A stretch of 64,000 nt of DNA from Escherichia coli (GCF_013122565.1 NZ_CP053258.1); one strand, 5' to 3'; shown: positions 6,209 through 13,607, counted from the first letter of the stretch. Made by a program: numbers and translations. The notes: a model not told the origin generated them from the sequence alone.

Positions 6209-6427
6209 ATGGAAAAAGAGCAGCTGATTGAAATAGCCAATACGATAATGCCGTTTGGCAAATACAAAGGGCGTCGCTTAATCGACCTGCCGGAGGAGTA
6301 TCTGCTGTGGTTTGCCCGCAAAGATGAGTTCCCGGCAGGGAAGCTCGGTGAGCTAATGCAAATCACGCTGCTGATTAAAACCGAGGGGCTGACGCAACTG
6401 GTCCAGCCCCTGAAGCGTCCGCTTTAA
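6209..6427 (+). CDS. ypeB: DUF3820-family small protein YpeB
   Basis: ORF 6110-6427 overlaps the ligA 3' end; start placed at MEKEQLIEIANTIMPFGKYKGRRL one base after the ligA stop. Confidence 0.8.
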   Translation: MEKEQLIEIANTIMPFGKYKGRRLIDLPEEYLLWFARKDEFPAGKLGELMQITLLIKTEGLTQLVQPLKRPL

Positions 6428-7422
6428 GCTTTATCGGCGCTGCTTTCCTGCTGCGCCTGTAACTGTTCGGTCTGGCGTTTGTATCGACGCGCCAGCACCG
6501 CACAGACCATCAATTGGATCTGATGGAAAATCATCAGGGGCAGCACCATCATACCGATCACCGATGTGGGGAACAGAATGTTTGCCATCGGGATGCCATT
6601 TGCCAGACTCTTTTTCGAACCACAAAAGACGATAGTAATTTCATCTGCTTTATTGAAGCCCAGTCGGCGTGCCATAAAGACGTTAACTACAATCACGATA
6701 GCCAGAAGAACGCAGCTGGCCACCACGATAAACAGCAATGATCCCCAGCCAACTTTATGCCAGATACCATTAACGACGGCTTCGCTGAACGCTGTATAAA
6801 CCACCAACAGAATGGACGTCTGGTCAGTTTTCGCAATCCATTTTTTATTGCGCGACACCCAGTCACCAATCCACGGCCGGGAAAGATGCCCTAACACAAA
6901 CGGCAGCAACAGTTGCAGCATAATTTTACCGACCTGCTCAAGGCTGCCCCCTGCACCGTGAACATTCATCACCAGGCCAACCAACAATGGTGAAAGGAAA
7001 ATCCCCAGCAGGCTGGATGCCGACGCAGAACAAACCGCCGCCGCGACGTTACCGCCCGCCATTGACGTGAAGGCGATTGCAGACTGCACGGTCGCGGGGA
7101 GAATGCACAAGTAGAGAAAACCGGAGTAGAGCATCGGGTCGACATTTACCGGTTTCCACCAGGCAAACAGCACGCCCAGAATCGGAAACAGCACGAAGGT
7201 GCTGCACATTACCCACAAATGCAGTCGCCAGTGACCACCGCCAGCAATAATCGCCTCACGCGACAACTTCGCGCCGTGCATAAAGAACAGCAGGGCAATC
7301 GCTGCGGTGGTCAGATTTTCAAAGAAGGGGACGAAATCGCCTCTGGCCGGAAAGAAAGAGGCCAACAACACCACCGTGATCAGGGTTAAGGTGAAAGGAT
7401 CGAGGATACGAAAAAGTTTCAT
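6424..7422 (-). CDS. yfeH: Putative bile acid:Na+ symporter-family (BASS) transporter YfeH
   Basis: 332-aa polytopic membrane ORF MKLFRILDPFTLTLITVVLLASFFPARGDF... Confidence 0.88.
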   Translation of the reverse strand: MKLFRILDPFTLTLITVVLLASFFPARGDFVPFFENLTTAAIALLFFMHGAKLSREAIIAGGGHWRLHLWVMCSTFVLFPILGVLFAWWKPVNVDPMLYSGFLYLCILPATVQSAIAFTSMAGGNVAAAVCSASASSLLGIFLSPLLVGLVMNVHGAGGSLEQVGKIMLQLLLPFVLGHLSRPWIGDWVSRNKKWIAKTDQTSILLVVYTAFSEAVVNGIWHKVGWGSLLFIVVASCVLLAIVIVVNVFMARRLGFNKADEITIVFCGSKKSLANGIPMANILFPTSVIGMMVLPLMIFHQIQLMVCAVLARRYKRQTEQLQAQQESSADKA

Positions 7423-7465
7423 AAAGACTCCAGATGATCGATGCTTTCATTGTGCGTTGTTCTGA

Positions 7466-7494
7466 TTGATAAATAAAACTGAATTGCTTATCAA
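7466..7494. promoter_or_regulatory. Inverted repeat TTGATAA-N15-TTATCAA upstream of yfeH; candidate operator
   Basis: Palindromic arms read directly in sequence about 45-70 bp upstream of the yfeH start; function inferred. Confidence 0.25.
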
Positions 7495-8050
7495 TTTGTG
7501 CGCGAGGAGTGTGAGTGAGTTGCTCGCTCGCTTCGACTGGTTGGCAGAGCGGGGGAGGATATCCCGGATGAGACAAATAAGACGTTCGACAAGAGAATCA
7601 GGTGACTACAGAAAAAATCACAGGATGTTATTACTGCTGATGTTCATGTCGGTTTTCGCGTTATCAGAACTGGTTTTAGAACTGCTATTTAATCGATAAT
7701 GCCATTCTGCAGGAAAGCTTTACCTACTTTATTATTTGCGGTGTGGTAAAACCTGGTCACCAGAGGCAGGTTTAATACCAGACGCTGTCTTTTATCAGAT
7801 ATCCCATGTAAATAATAAATGCAATGAATATTAATTCATTATGTATTTATTTTGTGATTGTTTGGTGTTACTAGTTTGTTGGACAAATAACAACTCTAAC
7901 TAATACATAAACCTTGCATAGTGACAGAGTATCGATCTGAATGTTTTCAACATTGATATCAAATTGCAATTGATATCCGTGGTAAAAAGTATTGGTAAAT
8001 TTGATGAATTTCCGGATATTTAAAGGGGCGGCTCAAAGACGAAGGGGAAG

Positions 8051-9307
8051 ATGGTGAATCTAAAACTACAGTTAAAAGTTCTTTCATTTCTGCAATTCTT
8101 TTTGTGGGGAAGTTGGCTCAACACATTCGGTTCTTATATGTTTATCACGCTGCGTTTTAAGGGCGAAGATATAGGCGCAGTCTACAGTACACTGGGTATC
8201 GCAGCATTAATAACATCAACGTTATTTGGTATCGTGGCCGATAAATGGATTAGTGCTAAATGGATATATGCCGCTTGTCATTTATTTGGCGCGATAACAT
8301 TATTTATCGCAGCATCGGTTACCACGCCTTCGGCAATGTTCATTGTCATTTTACTTAACTCTCTTGTGTATATGCCAACACTCGGTTTGAGTAATACAAT
8401 TTCCTATTACCGCCTACAAACAGCGGGGATGGATATTGTGACAGAATTTCCGCCAATCCGTATCTGGGGCACGATTGGATTTATTGTCGCAATGTGGGCG
8501 GTTAGCCTGGCTGGTTTTGAATTAAGTCATATGCAATTATATATCGGTGCGGCGGCTTCATTAGGCTTGAGCCTGTTCACGTTGACTTTACCAACTGTAC
8601 CAGTGGCGAAATCTAACCAGGCGCAAGGAATGATAGATGTTCTCGGATTGCGTGCATTTACACTGTTTAAAAACAGCAAAATGGCGATTTTCTTTATCTT
8701 TGCCATGCTGCTCGGGGCAGAGTTACAAATTACCGGGATGTTTGGTAATACATTTCTCCACAGCTTTGAGAGCGTTCCAGAGTTTACCAATAGTTTTGTT
8801 GTTACCCATGCTTCTATTCTGTTATCAATTTCTCAGATATCCGAAGTCTGTTTCATTCTTGCCATTCCTTTTTTCCTGAAAAAATACGGTATCAAAAATG
8901 TCATGCTGATGAGCATGGTGGCCTGGATGCTGCGTTTTGGTTTATTCGCTTATGGCGATCCTTCATTCGGTGGTACCATTCTGTTAATTCTTTCGATGAT
9001 TGTTTATGGCTGTGCTTTTGACTTCTTCAATATATCTGGCTCGGTATTTGTTGAACAAGAAGTTGATCCATCGATTCGTAACAGCGCTCAGGGCGTTTTC
9101 CTGATGATGGCCAATGGTTTTGGTTGTATTCTGGGCGGTTTTATCAGTGGTAAAGTCGTCGATTATTTAACAACGGATGGCAATCCACAGTGGTCAACCA
9201 TTTGGCTGGTATTTGCCGGATATTCACTGGTTCTGGCTCTCGCATTTATGGTGTTGTTTAAATATAAACACAACGGTAACCCGACAACGTCCGGTCATTT
9301 CGCCTGA
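8051..9307 (+). CDS. Nucleoside:H+ symporter (NHS family), NupG/XapB paralogue
   Basis: 418-aa 12-TM ORF MVNLKLQLKVLSFLQFFLWGSWL...; by recollection closer to NupG than to the XapB encoded 2 kb downstream; AT-rich; GTG at 8054 is an alternative start. Confidence 0.85.
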   Translation: MVNLKLQLKVLSFLQFFLWGSWLNTFGSYMFITLRFKGEDIGAVYSTLGIAALITSTLFGIVADKWISAKWIYAACHLFGAITLFIAASVTTPSAMFIVILLNSLVYMPTLGLSNTISYYRLQTAGMDIVTEFPPIRIWGTIGFIVAMWAVSLAGFELSHMQLYIGAAASLGLSLFTLTLPTVPVAKSNQAQGMIDVLGLRAFTLFKNSKMAIFFIFAMLLGAELQITGMFGNTFLHSFESVPEFTNSFVVTHASILLSISQISEVCFILAIPFFLKKYGIKNVMLMSMVAWMLRFGLFAYGDPSFGGTILLILSMIVYGCAFDFFNISGSVFVEQEVDPSIRNSAQGVFLMMANGFGCILGGFISGKVVDYLTTDGNPQWSTIWLVFAGYSLVLALAFMVLFKYKHNGNPTTSGHFA

Positions 9308-9361
9308 TACGGAGTTTATCAAAATTAATAATGTTTTATAGGATTCGCAAAAGAGGAAGTT

Positions 9362-10273
9362 ATGGCAAATCAATTGTATAACCAGTGTCGGGTTTATTGT
9401 GCACCCTGGCGATTAGATGCTTTAAATTTAAATGATATCATTGATCAATGGATTGACGAGGGGCTGTTGCCGCCCCTGATCCATACTTTTCTTCCATATC
9501 GCGATGATGCCGGTGCCTCCAGTGAAGAAGAGATTTTTGTTAACGATGTCGCGAATATGGATAACAGTGTTGGGGTTATCGGTTATTTCGATGGTGGAAC
9601 CTATGATTCCGGTTATGCATGGGCTTTAGGGATGCCTGTTCACCTGGTAACGACAGACTTTCTTATATGGGCAGCGGGGAATTCTTCAGAGTTTTATCCT
9701 ATAAGTAAGCTGATGAATTATGTGGCAAAAGTGGTTTCTGTGTCAGATTCCGATACCAGTATCAGCAATTATCGTGAACAAACCGACGATATCATCAAGC
9801 GTGCGTTGCAAATTTTTCAACAAAATTTAATCGCCGACTTCGGCACGACGATTAATCCAGCAGTACCGGTTACTCCATTGCCGATTGAGTATGACTACTA
9901 TATTGATCCTAACTTTATGTATACCGAACCCTCTCGGGACTTACTGGTGAAGATCAAAGATGCGATCATTAGTGCAGGTAAGACTTTCATCGTTGGCGAC
10001 AACATGAATGATATTGCGACTGATATTGATAACTTAAGAAAATCCAGACAGGCCATCTTTTATTCCGATACCTTTGAGCCGAATGTTGACACCGGCATTA
10101 TGAATGGTATTGCCTATGCATTAGGACAGCAATCGATTATTTATTGTAGCAAGCAACAAAAATATCAATCTGCGCTCGCGACAGATTATTTAAATTTAAT
10201 GATTACCTGGTCGTCAACGGTGGCGCATTCATTTGCGGAACTTGAAACATTGATTGGTAACACAGAAAAATAA
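9362..10273 (+). CDS. Hypothetical protein with two repeats of a nucleoside 2-deoxyribosyltransferase-like (SLOG-like) motif
   Basis: 303-aa ORF; motif VIGYFDGGTYDSGYAWALGMPVHLV in the first half and AIFYSDTFEPNVDTGIMNGIAYALGQQSIIY in the second; N-terminal VYCAPW resembles the NDT IYFGAGWF motif; family assignment by eye only. Confidence 0.4.
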   Translation: MANQLYNQCRVYCAPWRLDALNLNDIIDQWIDEGLLPPLIHTFLPYRDDAGASSEEEIFVNDVANMDNSVGVIGYFDGGTYDSGYAWALGMPVHLVTTDFLIWAAGNSSEFYPISKLMNYVAKVVSVSDSDTSISNYREQTDDIIKRALQIFQQNLIADFGTTINPAVPVTPLPIEYDYYIDPNFMYTEPSRDLLVKIKDAIISAGKTFIVGDNMNDIATDIDNLRKSRQAIFYSDTFEPNVDTGIMNGIAYALGQQSIIYCSKQQKYQSALATDYLNLMITWSSTVAHSFAELETLIGNTEK

Positions 10274-10285
10274 TAGTTAATTTTA

Positions 10286-10328
10286 CTGATTATCAGGTGA
10301 GTGATTGCCTGATAATCAGCTTTTTGTT
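10286..10328 (+). terminator. Rho-independent terminator after the 303-aa ORF
   Basis: Perfect 12-bp inverted repeat ctgattatcagg / cctgataatcag with 10-nt loop, followed by cttttt. Confidence 0.65.
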
Positions 10329-10501
10329 AGCCACCAAAGAAAAATATACTGCCGTTATATTTCTCTGCCGGGGAACGATATGATCGATTTCAAAATTATA
10401 TTGAATATCTCTGGAAAATGTATTGGTCACTCGCGACTTTTTCTCGCTATAAAAAAATGTGACTCAGATCTAACGCATAATGCTTATTACAAGGACTTGC
10501 C

Positions 10502-11335
10502 ATGACCCAATCTCATTTTTCACAAAACCCGTGGTATTGCGCAGATATCATTCGTCGTCATAAACCAGACTTTACCCCACGCGTTGCGTTTATTTTGGGT
10601 TCGGGACTGGGAGCGCTGGCTGAACAAATAGAAGACGCAGTTGCCATTTCTTATAGCGATTTGCCGGGGTTTCCGGTGAGCACCGTACACGGCCATGCAG
10701 GAGAGTTGGTCCTCGGCGTGCTTTCTGGTGTGCCTGTAGCCTGCATGAAAGGTCGCGGTCATTTTTATGAGGGCCGGGGAATGACTGTCATGACTGATGC
10801 TATTCGCACGTTCAAGTTGCTGGGCTGTGAATTGTTGTTCTGCACTAACGCTGCAGGTTCGCTTCGCCCGGAAGTAGGGGCGGGTAGTCTGGTTGCGCTG
10901 AAAGATCACATTAATACGATGCCAGGCACACCGATGACAGGCCTTAATGATGAGCGTTTTGGTGAACGTTTTTTCTCATTAGCGAATGCTTACGATGCTG
11001 ATTACCGCGCCGTTTTACAAACCGTCGCGCATGAAGAAGGTTTTCCGCTGACAGAAGGGGTTTTTGTTTCTTATCCGGGGCCGAACTTCGAAACGGCGGC
11101 AGAAATTCGCATGATGCAGCTGTTTGGTGGCGACGTAGTAGGTATGTCTGTAGTGCCTGAAGTGATTAGCGCACGTCATTGCGAAATGAAAGTCGTTGCC
11201 GTGTCAGCAATAACCAACATGGCGGAAGGCTTAAGCGATGTGAAATTGTCGCATGCCCAAACCCTGGCTGCAGCAGAGTTATCACGACAAAACTTTATTA
11301 ATTTGATTTGCGGATTCTTACGCAAAATCGCCTGA
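10502..11335 (+). CDS. xapA: Xanthosine phosphorylase (purine nucleoside phosphorylase II)
   Basis: 277-aa ORF MTQSHFSQNPWYCADIIRRHKPDFTPRVAFILGSGLG..., PNP/MTAP fold. Confidence 0.93.
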   Translation: MTQSHFSQNPWYCADIIRRHKPDFTPRVAFILGSGLGALAEQIEDAVAISYSDLPGFPVSTVHGHAGELVLGVLSGVPVACMKGRGHFYEGRGMTVMTDAIRTFKLLGCELLFCTNAAGSLRPEVGAGSLVALKDHINTMPGTPMTGLNDERFGERFFSLANAYDADYRAVLQTVAHEEGFPLTEGVFVSYPGPNFETAAEIRMMQLFGGDVVGMSVVPEVISARHCEMKVVAVSAITNMAEGLSDVKLSHAQTLAAAELSRQNFINLICGFLRKIA

Positions 11336-11392: not shown

Positions 11393-12640
11393 ATGAATAT
11401 CGCAACGCGTTTAAAGGTAATGTCTTTCTTACAATATTTTATCTGGGGGAGTTGGTTAGTTACCCTCGGATCTTACATGATAAACACCTTACATTTTACC
11501 GGGGCTGATGTCGGTATGGCATACAGTTCTAAAGGCATTGCGGCCATTATTATGCCAGCCATTATGGGCATTATTGCCGATAAATGGTTACGGGCTGAAC
11601 GTACCTATATGCTGTGTCACTTAATTTGTGCCGGGGTGCTTTTTTATGCCGCCTCCGTAACTGAACCGAATATGATGTTCTGGGTGATGTTGCTTAACGC
11701 GATGGCTTTCATGCCCACGATTGCGTTATCCAACAGTGTTTCCTATTCGTGCCTGGCGCAGGCCGGATTAGACCCAGTCACCAGTTTTCCGCCAATCCGT
11801 GTTTATGGCACCGTGGGATTTATTGTCGCAATGTGGCTGGTGAGTTTATTGCATCTGGAGTTAAGTAGTGTGCAGTTGTATATCGCTTCTGGAGCATCTT
11901 TAGTGTTAGCGATCTATGCATTAACATTACCGAAAATTCCAGTGGCGGAACATAAAGCCAGTACGACGCTTTCCAGTAAATTAGGCCTGGATGCGTTTGT
12001 GTTATTTAAAAATCCGCGTATGGCGATTTTCTTTTTATTTGCTATGTTATTAGGTGCGGTACTGCAAATTACTAACGTTTTTGGTAATCCTTTCCTGCAT
12101 GACTTTGCCCGCAATCTTGAGTTTGCTGATAGCTTCGTGGTGAAATATCCATCCATTTTGCTCTCGGTTTCACAAATGGCGGAAGTCGGCTTCATTCTTA
12201 CCATTCCATTCTTCCTGAAGCGTTTTGGCATCAAAACCGTCATGTTGATGAGTATGGTAGCGTGGACGTTACGCTTTGGCTTCTTTGCCTTTGGCGACCC
12301 ATCGGCAGGTGGCTTTGTATTATTGTTGTTGTCGATGATTGTGTATGGCTGCGCGTTCGACTTTTTCAATATCTCCGGTTCAGTGTTTGTCGAGCAAGAA
12401 GTGGACTCCAGGATCCGCGCCAGCGCTCAGGGTTTATTTATGACTATGGTCAATGGCGTTGGGGCGTGGATTGGTTCTCTTCTGAGTGGCATGGCAGTTG
12501 ACTATTTCACGGTTGATGGCGTGAAAGACTGGCAAACCATCTGGCTAGTATTTGCTGCGTATGCACTGGCCTTAGCGGTGATTTTTGCCCTGTTCTTCCG
12601 TTATAAGCATGAACCTGATAAATGGCGCAGAAATCATTGA
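11393..12640 (+). CDS. xapB: Xanthosine permease (NHS family)
   Basis: 415-aa ORF MNIATRLKVMSFLQYFIWGSWLVTLGSYMINTLHFTG... directly downstream of xapA. Confidence 0.92.
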   Translation: MNIATRLKVMSFLQYFIWGSWLVTLGSYMINTLHFTGADVGMAYSSKGIAAIIMPAIMGIIADKWLRAERTYMLCHLICAGVLFYAASVTEPNMMFWVMLLNAMAFMPTIALSNSVSYSCLAQAGLDPVTSFPPIRVYGTVGFIVAMWLVSLLHLELSSVQLYIASGASLVLAIYALTLPKIPVAEHKASTTLSSKLGLDAFVLFKNPRMAIFFLFAMLLGAVLQITNVFGNPFLHDFARNLEFADSFVVKYPSILLSVSQMAEVGFILTIPFFLKRFGIKTVMLMSMVAWTLRFGFFAFGDPSAGGFVLLLLSMIVYGCAFDFFNISGSVFVEQEVDSRIRASAQGLFMTMVNGVGAWIGSLLSGMAVDYFTVDGVKDWQTIWLVFAAYALALAVIFALFFRYKHEPDKWRRNH

Positions 12641-12716: not shown

Positions 12717-13607
12717 ATGATTATGGAAGGTACGCATCGTATTGATCTCAAGTTATTGCGCTATTTTCTTGCGGTCGCAGAAGAACTTCACTTTGGGCGG
12801 GCCGCTGCGCGGCTGAATATGTCGCAACCGCCATTAAGTATTCATATTAAAGATCTGGAGCAACAGTTGGGCACGTTGCTGTTCGTTCGTCATTCGCGCA
12901 GTGTGGCGCTCACTCATGCGGGGAAAATTTTACTGGAAGAGTCACGTCGTCTGCTGGCTAATGCCAGTCAGGCGTTGGCACGAGTAGAACAGATCGGTCG
13001 TGGTGAGGCAGGGCGCATTGAGCTGGGCGTGGTGGGAACCGCAATGTGGGGGCGAATGCGTCCGGTAATGCGGCGGTTTTTGAAAGAGTGCCCTAATGTT
13101 CATGTCTCATTTCGTGAAAAATCACCAGGGATGCAAATGGCATTGCTCGAGCGGCGGGAGCTGGACGCGGGTATCTGGCGGATGGCAATTGAACCCACGA
13201 CGGGATTTACCAGTCTGCGATTACACGAATCTTCGTTTTTGGTGGCGATACCGGAAGATCATCATCTGGCTTGCGAAAACGCTATCCCGTTAATGGCATT
13301 ACGCAATGAATACTTTGTGACGCTGCCATCGGTCCATTCCGACTGGGCGTTTTTACAGCGTGTCTGTCAGCAGGCAGGGTTTTCACCGATGATCGTTCGG
13401 GAGGCCGTAGAACCGCAAACCGTACTGGCGATGATCAGTATGGGGCTGGGTGTGACATTAATGGCAGATAGCTATGCCCAAATGAGCTGGCCGGGTGTGG
13501 TATTTCGTCCACTCGAGGAACGTATTCCAGCAGATTTGTATATTGTTTATGAACAGCAACAGGCAACACCAGCGCTGGAGAGATTAGTTAATGCTTTGAT
13601 AGCATGA
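12717..13607 (+). CDS. xapR: LysR-type transcriptional activator of xapAB
   Basis: 296-aa ORF with N-terminal LysR HTH (LKLLRYFLAVAEELHFGRAAARLNMSQPPLS); start could be the second Met at 12723. Confidence 0.9.
   Translation: MIMEGTHRIDLKLLRYFLAVAEELHFGRAAARLNMSQPPLSIHIKDLEQQLGTLLFVRHSRSVALTHAGKILLEESRRLLANASQALARVEQIGRGEAGRIELGVVGTAMWGRMRPVMRRFLKECPNVHVSFREKSPGMQMALLERRELDAGIWRMAIEPTTGFTSLRLHESSFLVAIPEDHHLACENAIPLMALRNEYFVTLPSVHSDWAFLQRVCQQAGFSPMIVREAVEPQTVLAMISMGLGVTLMADSYAQMSWPGVVFRPLEERIPADLYIVYEQQQATPALERLVNALIA

Follow-up and report, generated by a model that had tools for sequence, protein, structure and literature searches.

The 64,000-nucleotide stretch of the Escherichia coli genome NZ_CP053258.1 (GCF_013122565.1) analyzed here, referred to below as the window, carries directly upstream of xapA an intact open reading frame (ORF) of 303 codons at positions 9362-10273 of the plus strand. 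Our analyses indicate that this gene probably belongs to an uncharacterized family in which two nucleoside 2-deoxyribosyltransferase (NDT) domains are fused into one chain, with one composite active site and a role in nucleoside metabolism, and that the copy in the window is a deletion allele of this family that is most likely dead. The evidence comes from DNA and protein alignments that locate the deletion, from family profiles and structure models that relate both halves of the protein to NDTs, from the pattern of residues that each half has kept or lost, and from the genes that surround family members.

An 18-bp Deletion Removes the Catalytic Glutamate from the Window Allele

The translation of the ORF is identical to the protein quoted in an earlier reading of the window (the first-pass annotation), which described an internal duplication of an NDT-like motif, and the features that it cited are real. 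VYCAPWRLD begins at residue 11, FDGGTYDSGYAWALGMPV at residue 76 and DTGIMNGIAYALGQQSII at residue 243, which places the two repeat motifs 167 residues apart. Two residues ahead of the glycine of G-[YI]-A, repeat 1 has Asp and repeat 2 has Met, as had been read by eye. A database search found homologs in just 26 clusters, from E. coli, E. albertii, Citrobacter and metagenomes. When aligned with 13 full-length homologs (307-320 amino acids), the window protein shows a gap of six residues and reads D-S-G-Y, in a region where all 13 close homologs contain D-[SPA]-G-[CS]-x-[FW]-E-[VI]-G-[YCF]; the intact, Glu-bearing form of the motif is D-S-G-C-A-W-E-V-G-Y-A-W.

The same gap is seen at the DNA level. 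Alignment to LHM10-1 and IAI39, the annotations of which give an intact gene of 930 bp and 309 amino acids under the protein accessions WP_089601685.1 and WP_000013329.1, respectively, shows that 18 bp coding for GCAWEV are absent past position 9613. Intact alleles have this segment between GGTTGTGCATGGG and GGTT/CATGCATGGG, and the window keeps GGTTATGCATGGG. The flanks of the deleted segment are imperfect 13-bp direct repeats, GGTT[G/A]TGCATGGG, which match at 12 of 13 positions in LHM10-1. Such flanks are a classical footprint of slipped-strand events, and the deletion probably arose by one between these repeats.

Profile alignment identifies the Glu within GCAWEV as the catalytic Glu of solved NDTs, and in terms of the AlphaFold2 (AF2) model described below the six deleted residues fall where the catalytic helix (helix 83-94) begins. 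Against PF05014 the intact allele scores 43.5 bits (E 4.1e-11) and the window allele 17.2 bits, a loss of 26 bits. The window allele has lost the catalytic Glu from its N-terminal domain (N-domain) and has Met in the corresponding place in its C-terminal domain (C-domain). The first-pass annotation had taken the Glu of repeat 1 to be not conserved, which holds for the window sequence but not for the family, where all close homologs retain it; the Asp that it placed at the Glu position is D82, moved into register by the deletion.

The window protein is identical to P0177 (QJU27528.1/WP_171460539.1), from an E. coli genome, and differs from HBE6261494.1 by a single residue (T296A). The same deletion allele is found in SRR11451197, SRR11451224, GCA_018578885.1 and one further E. 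coli genome, and because it recurs in four independent assemblies or read sets the gap is real; an assembly artifact was rejected. In the closest complete RefSeq genomes (98.7% DNA identity), the matching stretch exceeds the query by 18 bp.

Because the deletion takes out the Glu nucleophile, the window allele is most likely catalytically dead and would represent a recent loss of function in one small E. coli lineage or clone. In CtNDT, the NDT of Chroococcidiopsis thermalis, the E88A protein is inactive and the E88Q protein is ~50-fold less efficient (PMC10913048). We consider it very unlikely that the 303-residue allele is still functional, whether as a hydrolase of weaker activity or altered specificity that relies on Asp62 or Asp82 or by binding nucleosides, and is kept by selection. 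An otherwise intact ORF beside a full-length permease gene, the presence of the allele in several isolates and the ~2% efficiency kept by CtNDT E88Q, for which D62 was suggested as compensating (PMC10913048), would fit such a protein. Yet the deletion cuts six residues out of the opening part of the catalytic helix rather than altering one side chain, and the CtNDT substitution E88A abolishes activity. Moreover, the carrier data sets have adjacent Sequence Read Archive (SRA) run numbers and near-identical sequence, as fits one recent clone, and the complete-genome carriers of the island match longer stretches than the query, with genes of 309 amino acids in LHM10-1 and IAI39.

Both Halves of the Protein Adopt the NDT Fold

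Pfam matches to the window protein are marginal, with PF05014 found at residues 41-99 (E 0.0059) and at residues 219-280 (E 0.024). Family profiles give a much clearer result. In an alignment of 32 family sequences, with identity reaching down to 18%, hhalign matched the N-terminal half to the C-terminal half with a probability of 96.7% and an E value of 3.6e-10 over 72 columns. The comparison of halves built from the 13 close homologs alone is weak (P 0.0017, 41 columns), and the repeat signal is clear only with ~30 diverse family members added. The C-half profile by itself matches solved NDTs, 7o62 with E 4.7e-8 and 1s2d with E 1.2e-4, and PF05014 matches 7 of 25 C-domains at E ≤ 1e-3. The full-length family profile matches NDTs through the N-domain (query positions 38-115), as in 7m5h (E 5e-8), with the catalytic Glu aligned. 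The family profile aligns onto the D-x-G-x-x-x-E-x-G catalytic motif of solved NDTs, and the NLM of the C-domain (N278-L-M280 in the window protein) aligns on the NPM of 7o62 and the NLM of 1s2d.

Structure models, which were made for the intact 309-residue allele and not the window allele, agree with the profiles. For the full-length AF2 model (mean predicted local distance difference test score, pLDDT, 78; predicted template modeling score, pTM, 0.85), the best Foldseek matches in the PDB are NDTs. The C-domain model has a pLDDT of 92.6, and NDTs make up its best 29 PDB matches, which are all the matches with E ≤ 0.001 (TMq 0.64-0.72). Thus, the internal duplication of an NDT domain is confirmed by family profiles and structure and not by eye alignment alone, and both domains share the NDT fold, a flavodoxin-like α/β fold.

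These matches also bear on the suggestion, made in the first-pass annotation, of a SLOG/LOG-like identity. That absence of the Glu is natural to this protein and its family, and that they are binding proteins or SLOG/LOG-like hydrolases rather than NDT-type enzymes, is highly improbable in our judgment: neither repeat of the window protein has Glu at the nucleophile position and its Pfam matches are marginal, but the N-domain Glu is universal among the family representatives considered below as well as the close homologs, its absence here is accounted for by the 18-bp deletion, and genuine NDTs come first in both the sequence and the fold searches. Pfam searches of the window protein and the 13 homologs gave PF05014 and weak PF15891 matches only, with no LOG or SLOG family, NCBIfam has no model that matches the 303-residue protein, and the SLOG/LOG assignment is not supported. 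PHROGs returned generic NDT families only.

A Two-Domain Family with Complementary Motif Loss

An exhaustive profile search recovered 704 proteins at a cutoff of E ≤ 1e-3 and 114 at one of E ≤ 1e-10. Of these, ~100 are 300-390 amino acids long and are matched end to end. There is, by these sequence matches, a wider two-domain NDT family, with ~100 clusters at 50% identity that extend from Escherichia to Clostridia, Flavobacteriales and bacteria of the candidate phyla radiation (CPR).

The active site of NDTs is completed by the Asn and Met (or Tyr) of an NLM motif that comes from the dimer partner subunit (PMC12372993). Residues were counted at the corresponding sites in 111 full-length two-domain representatives, using the numbering of the intact homolog P0003. 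The N-domain keeps Tyr6 (104/111), Asp62 (110/111), Asp82 (111/111) and Glu88 (111/111), but at its site equivalent to the Asn of NLM it has Asp or Ser and never Asn (0/111). The C-domain shows the opposite pattern: Leu, Ile, Met or Val occupies the site equivalent to the Glu, which is Glu in 0 of 111, while Asn284 and Met286 are kept in 109 and 108 representatives. The spacing of D62, D82 and E88, 20 and 6 residues, is that of Asp74/Asp94/Glu100 in the Desulfotalea psychrophila enzyme DpNDT and of Asp60/Asp80/Glu86 in the Enterococcus faecalis enzyme EfPDT. The Tyr and two Asp residues of the sugar pocket (Tyr16, Asp74 and Asp94 in DpNDT) are kept in the window protein as Y6, D62 and D82.

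This pattern points to complementary degeneration after the fusion of two NDT protomers. In a classical NDT homodimer, one subunit gives the Tyr, the two Asp residues and the Glu nucleophile to a site for which the partner gives Asn-Leu-Met. In the two-domain family, the N-domain, with Tyr6, Asp62, Asp82 and Glu88 kept and NLM lost, would take the first role, and the C-domain, with the Glu lost and Asn284-x-Met286 kept, would take the second. Both dimer roles would then lie on one chain, which would act as a pseudo-dimer with a single composite active site, and in it the N-domain site is predicted, by analogy to NDT dimers and from the model, to be completed in space by the C-domain NLM. The proposal in the first-pass annotation that one chain forms a pseudo-dimer with no more than one active site agrees with the hhalign result, the C-half profile, the residue pattern of the 111 representatives and the C-domain fold.

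Among the C-domains, the sole Glu noticed near the nucleophile site is in P0044, a metagenomic representative of 328 amino acids, where it lies one residue ahead of the conserved Gly in the pseudo-motif (D-S-S-I-I-E-G-L-A-Y) and one position off the catalytic register.

Gene Neighborhoods Indicate Nucleoside Uptake and Catabolism

Every neighborhood that was looked at contains nucleoside-related genes. In E. coli and E. albertii the order is (OmpK/Tsx-like porin)-permease-NDT-xapA-xapB-xapR. In Citrobacter (L030/L031 4578-9044) the permease-NDT pair is followed by a gene for an adenine deaminase of 590 amino acids and lies at a different chromosomal site, not by xapA; by this pair the permease and NDT genes move as a unit. 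The closest nonenterobacterial relative, 54% identical, is from a metagenome-assembled genome (MAG) of Clostridiales (L012), where the NDT gene is accompanied by an Rbs-type ABC transporter, a RihC-like hydrolase and a LacI-type regulator; Pfam gave no match for a 513-residue neighbor at this locus. Metagenomic relatives with 43-50% identity have as neighbors a DeoR or Crp regulator, a PunA/XapA-sized purine nucleoside phosphorylase (PNP), DeoC, DeoB and a CUT1 ABC transporter. The order in Enterocloster is PNP-ABC transporter-NDT, in Lachnospiraceae M18-1 it is DeoR and then NDT-DeoD-DeoC-Bmp/PnrA nucleoside-binding protein-ABC ATPase, and in a betaproteobacterium it is Tsx-NDT. PNPs of PunA/XapA or DeoD type also flank distant family members. 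Finally, in a Lachnoclostridium MAG (L017 5240-9406), at 30% identity, the NDT gene lies with a dTMP-kinase-like gene, a ribokinase/nucleoside-kinase-like gene and an NCS1 nucleobase transporter gene, a context of salvage rather than catabolic type, and the role may differ between subfamilies.

Collectively, these neighborhoods indicate (deoxy)nucleoside uptake and catabolism. The intracellular enzyme would strip or exchange the base of imported (deoxy)nucleosides and, with an adjacent PNP, would convert deoxynucleosides to purine deoxynucleosides, from which the PNP would yield deoxyribose 1-phosphate for DeoB and DeoC. We lean toward the view that intact members are undescribed single-chain, asymmetric NDTs with one composite site, which act with a nucleoside transporter and a PNP to feed deoxyribose to DeoB and DeoC. 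The substrate class we infer from context, and the chemistry may be either transfer or hydrolysis.

An architecture as described, in which the intact enzymes are N-glycoside hydrolases of deoxynucleosides or nucleotides, like DNPH1, BcmB and MilB, rather than base-exchanging transferases, is unlikely but deserves a hearing. Hydrolases of the NDT fold are among the fold matches (BcmB, 4jen, at ranks 30, 35 and 40; DNPH1, 8rps, at rank 50), and NDTs themselves hydrolyze their substrates when no acceptor base is present (PMC10913048). At the Lachnoclostridium locus the ribokinase-family neighbor could phosphorylate free deoxyribose, and the Clostridiales locus pairs the NDT with another nucleoside hydrolase. 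True NDTs, however, outrank the hydrolases in every search, and the full set of NDT residues, including NLM, is kept. In addition, the neighbor in most contexts is a PNP and not a sugar kinase, which fits the route from purine deoxynucleosides to deoxyribose 1-phosphate, and the NCS1 nucleobase transporter and adenine deaminase neighbors fit base exchange.

NDT-like domains occur in some defense systems, the locus is a low-GC island, and the fold searches gave weak matches to TIR and SARM1 domains. An antiphage effector, NDT/TIR-like and acting as an NADase or by depleting nucleotides, is nonetheless scarcely credible: PADLOC gave no match for the window protein, P0003, P0027 or P0044 and only a subthreshold ThsB match (E 0.0019, 15 bits) for the distant P0072, and the neighbors are metabolic nucleoside genes in every context looked at.

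Organization of the Locus

The gene order in the window is ligA, ypeB, yfeH (minus strand), a NupG/XapB-type permease gene, the 303-residue ORF, xapA, xapB, a XapR-type LysR regulator gene, tRNA genes and gltX, and the features of the module and its surroundings are listed in Table 1. The ORF lies in a low-GC stretch (~7500-10500; GC 0.34-0.43, against ~0.50-0.57 in the flanks). The permease gene at 8051-9307 adjoins the tandem-NDT gene in E. coli, E. albertii and Citrobacter, and the intergenic region before it is the presumed promoter region of the two-gene module. A promoter consensus scan was at background, with 10 sites against 10.6 expected. The terminator-like hairpin found past the stop codon by a consensus scan suggests that the permease and NDT genes form their own transcription unit apart from xapA. 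Rfam scans revealed no riboswitch or other RNA, either in window positions 7300-10600 at E ≤ 1 or in nine homologous loci at the gathering threshold. In the AF2 model the interdomain linker consists of a helix (148-166) and then coil up to the strand at 183-187 (P0003 numbering). The two paralogous NupG/XapB-type permeases, the island copy (8051-9307) and xapB (11393-12640), are 61% identical and 2 kb apart.

Table 1. Features of the permease-NDT module and the adjacent xap genes (window coordinates)
Feature	Coordinates	Strand	Basis
Low-GC intergenic region 5' of the permease gene; candidate promoter region	7423..8050		GC 0.34-0.42 vs ~0.50-0.57 in flanks
NupG/XapB-type nucleoside:H+ permease, first gene of the module	8051..9307	+	Full-length match to TIGR00889 (nucleoside permease), 633 bits
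Tandem (two-domain) NDT-family gene, 303 aa, deletion allele	9362..10273	+	Homologs annotated nucleoside 2-deoxyribosyltransferase, 307-320 aa
N-terminal NDT domain, residues 1-125, without the Glu nucleophile	9362..9736	+	PF05014 match at residues 41-99, E 0.0059
Retained N-domain residues Y6, D62, D82	9377-9379, 9545-9547, 9605-9607	+	Profile alignment to solved NDTs
Deletion junction, surviving repeat copy GGTTATGCATGGG	9611..9623	+	DNA alignment to LHM10-1 and IAI39; protein alignment
Interdomain linker, residues ~126-176, with long helix	9737..9889	+	AF2 model of intact homolog
C-terminal degenerate NDT domain, residues 177-303	9890..10270	+	C-domain profile, PF05014, AF2 model
C-domain Met247 in the Glu position; conserved N278-L-M280	10100-10102; 10193-10201	+	Profile alignment to NDTs
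Terminator-like hairpin, 15-bp stem then CTTTTTGTTA, 13 nt past the stop codon	10286..10319	+	Consensus scan only
xapA, xanthosine (purine nucleoside) phosphorylase, directly 3'	10502..11335	+	TIGR01699 XAPA, 511 bits
xapB, nucleoside permease	11393..12640	+	TIGR00889, 708 bits; annotated xapB in syntenic genomes
xapR-type LysR regulator	12717..13607	+	NF007439, 515 bits; syntenic with K-12 xapR

Distribution and Origin of the Module

The permease-NDT module is present in 15 of 5426 complete RefSeq E. coli genomes (~0.3%), including IAI39 and CE10, and these carriers match stretches that are ~16-18 bp longer than the query, or ~650 bp longer with a porin gene. In K-12 (L029 5046-8945), yfeN and the LysR regulator gene yfeR lie between xapA and yfeH and there is no NDT gene; the window (6424-10501) has no yfeN or yfeR between xapA and yfeH and has the permease and NDT genes instead. 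Gene content between xapA and yfeH is variable among E. coli chromosomes.

Between yfeH and the permease gene, E. coli of the IAI39 type carry a gene (L002 3762-4529) for an OmpK/Tsx-like (YfeN-like) outer-membrane nucleoside channel. The 838-bp stretch of IAI39 that holds it (L002 3641-4478) is replaced in the window by 207 bp of unrelated low-GC sequence (7541-7747), and likewise in LHM10-1-type strains; from this replacement the module of the window appears to have shed its porin in addition to the NDT nucleophile. The low GC content of the island and the position of Clostridiales as the nearest outside relatives are consistent with horizontal acquisition.

Discussion

The two-domain proteins are best compared with the bacterial NDTs of PF05014, among them DpNDT (7o62), EfPDT (7m5h), CtNDT (8pqt) and the Lactobacillus helveticus PDT (1s2d). 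Both domains have the same fold as these enzymes, the family N-domain has the same Tyr, Asp and Asp-x-G-x-x-x-Glu-x-G set, and the family C-domain has the NLM motif. Bacterial NDTs, however, are single-domain proteins of 130-170 amino acids, the catalytic unit of which is a homodimer (assembled further into tetramers or hexamers) with two equivalent sites, whereas the family described here has two diverged, fused copies with complementary motif loss and one site at most complete, and the window allele also lacks the Glu. The N-glycosidases DNPH1/Rcl, BcmB and MilB share the superfamily fold, likewise have a Glu nucleophile and come lower in the structural ranking (4jen, 8rps); in contrast to the family, which has nucleoside transporters and PNP as neighbors, they act on nucleotides (CMP or dNMP), and they are single-domain proteins that fall below true NDTs in every search. 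With respect to known loci, the module lies directly 5' of xapA in the E. coli xap locus and its permease resembles XapB, while distant family members adjoin the PNP, DeoC and DeoB genes familiar from the classical deo operon.

Several observations weigh against a fused NDT with one composite site and a dead copy in the window. When the two halves of the window protein are aligned directly (Smith-Waterman), the score is 32, against a shuffle mean of 29.5 (SD 4.7; z 0.54), and 273 of 1000 shuffles reach 32; the self-alignment of the intact homolog P0003 is likewise at chance (z 0.43). The duplication proposed in the first-pass annotation is thus borne out by profiles and fold but not by single-sequence self-alignment. 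The full-length AF2 model is only moderate, at pLDDT 78, and the closeness of the C-domain Asn and Met to the N-domain Glu rests on homology to the NDT dimer and on the pTM of 0.85. The neighborhoods vary, with a ribokinase-like gene in one and a RihC-like hydrolase gene in another, and the role is perhaps not uniform. A literature search for tandem, pseudo-dimeric or xap-linked NDTs found nothing relevant. Finally, the window ORF is otherwise intact, its inactivity is something we infer, and the residual activity of CtNDT E88Q, for which D62 was proposed as a back-up, means that an enzyme without the Glu is not necessarily fully dead (PMC10913048).

As far as a full-text search shows, the fused two-domain architecture with its apparent complementary motif loss has not been described, although public records already name the protein "nucleoside 2-deoxyribosyltransferase". 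For the window copy this label needs care: the nucleophile is absent, and the sequence is better treated as a probable loss-of-function allele. As it lacks the catalytic Glu that defines these enzymes, it ought not to be classed among active NDTs.

NDTs find wide use as biocatalysts in the synthesis of nucleoside analogs. To our knowledge, their active sites always span a homodimer interface, such that any mutation affects both sites and both halves of each. A fused pseudo-dimer with one composite site, if true, would allow the two halves to be engineered independently, and would be a clear case of subfunctionalization after domain duplication. For E. coli, the findings suggest an accessory deoxynucleoside-utilization module, consisting of a permease and an NDT, beside the xap locus, a module that is also found in E. 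albertii, Citrobacter and gut Clostridia.

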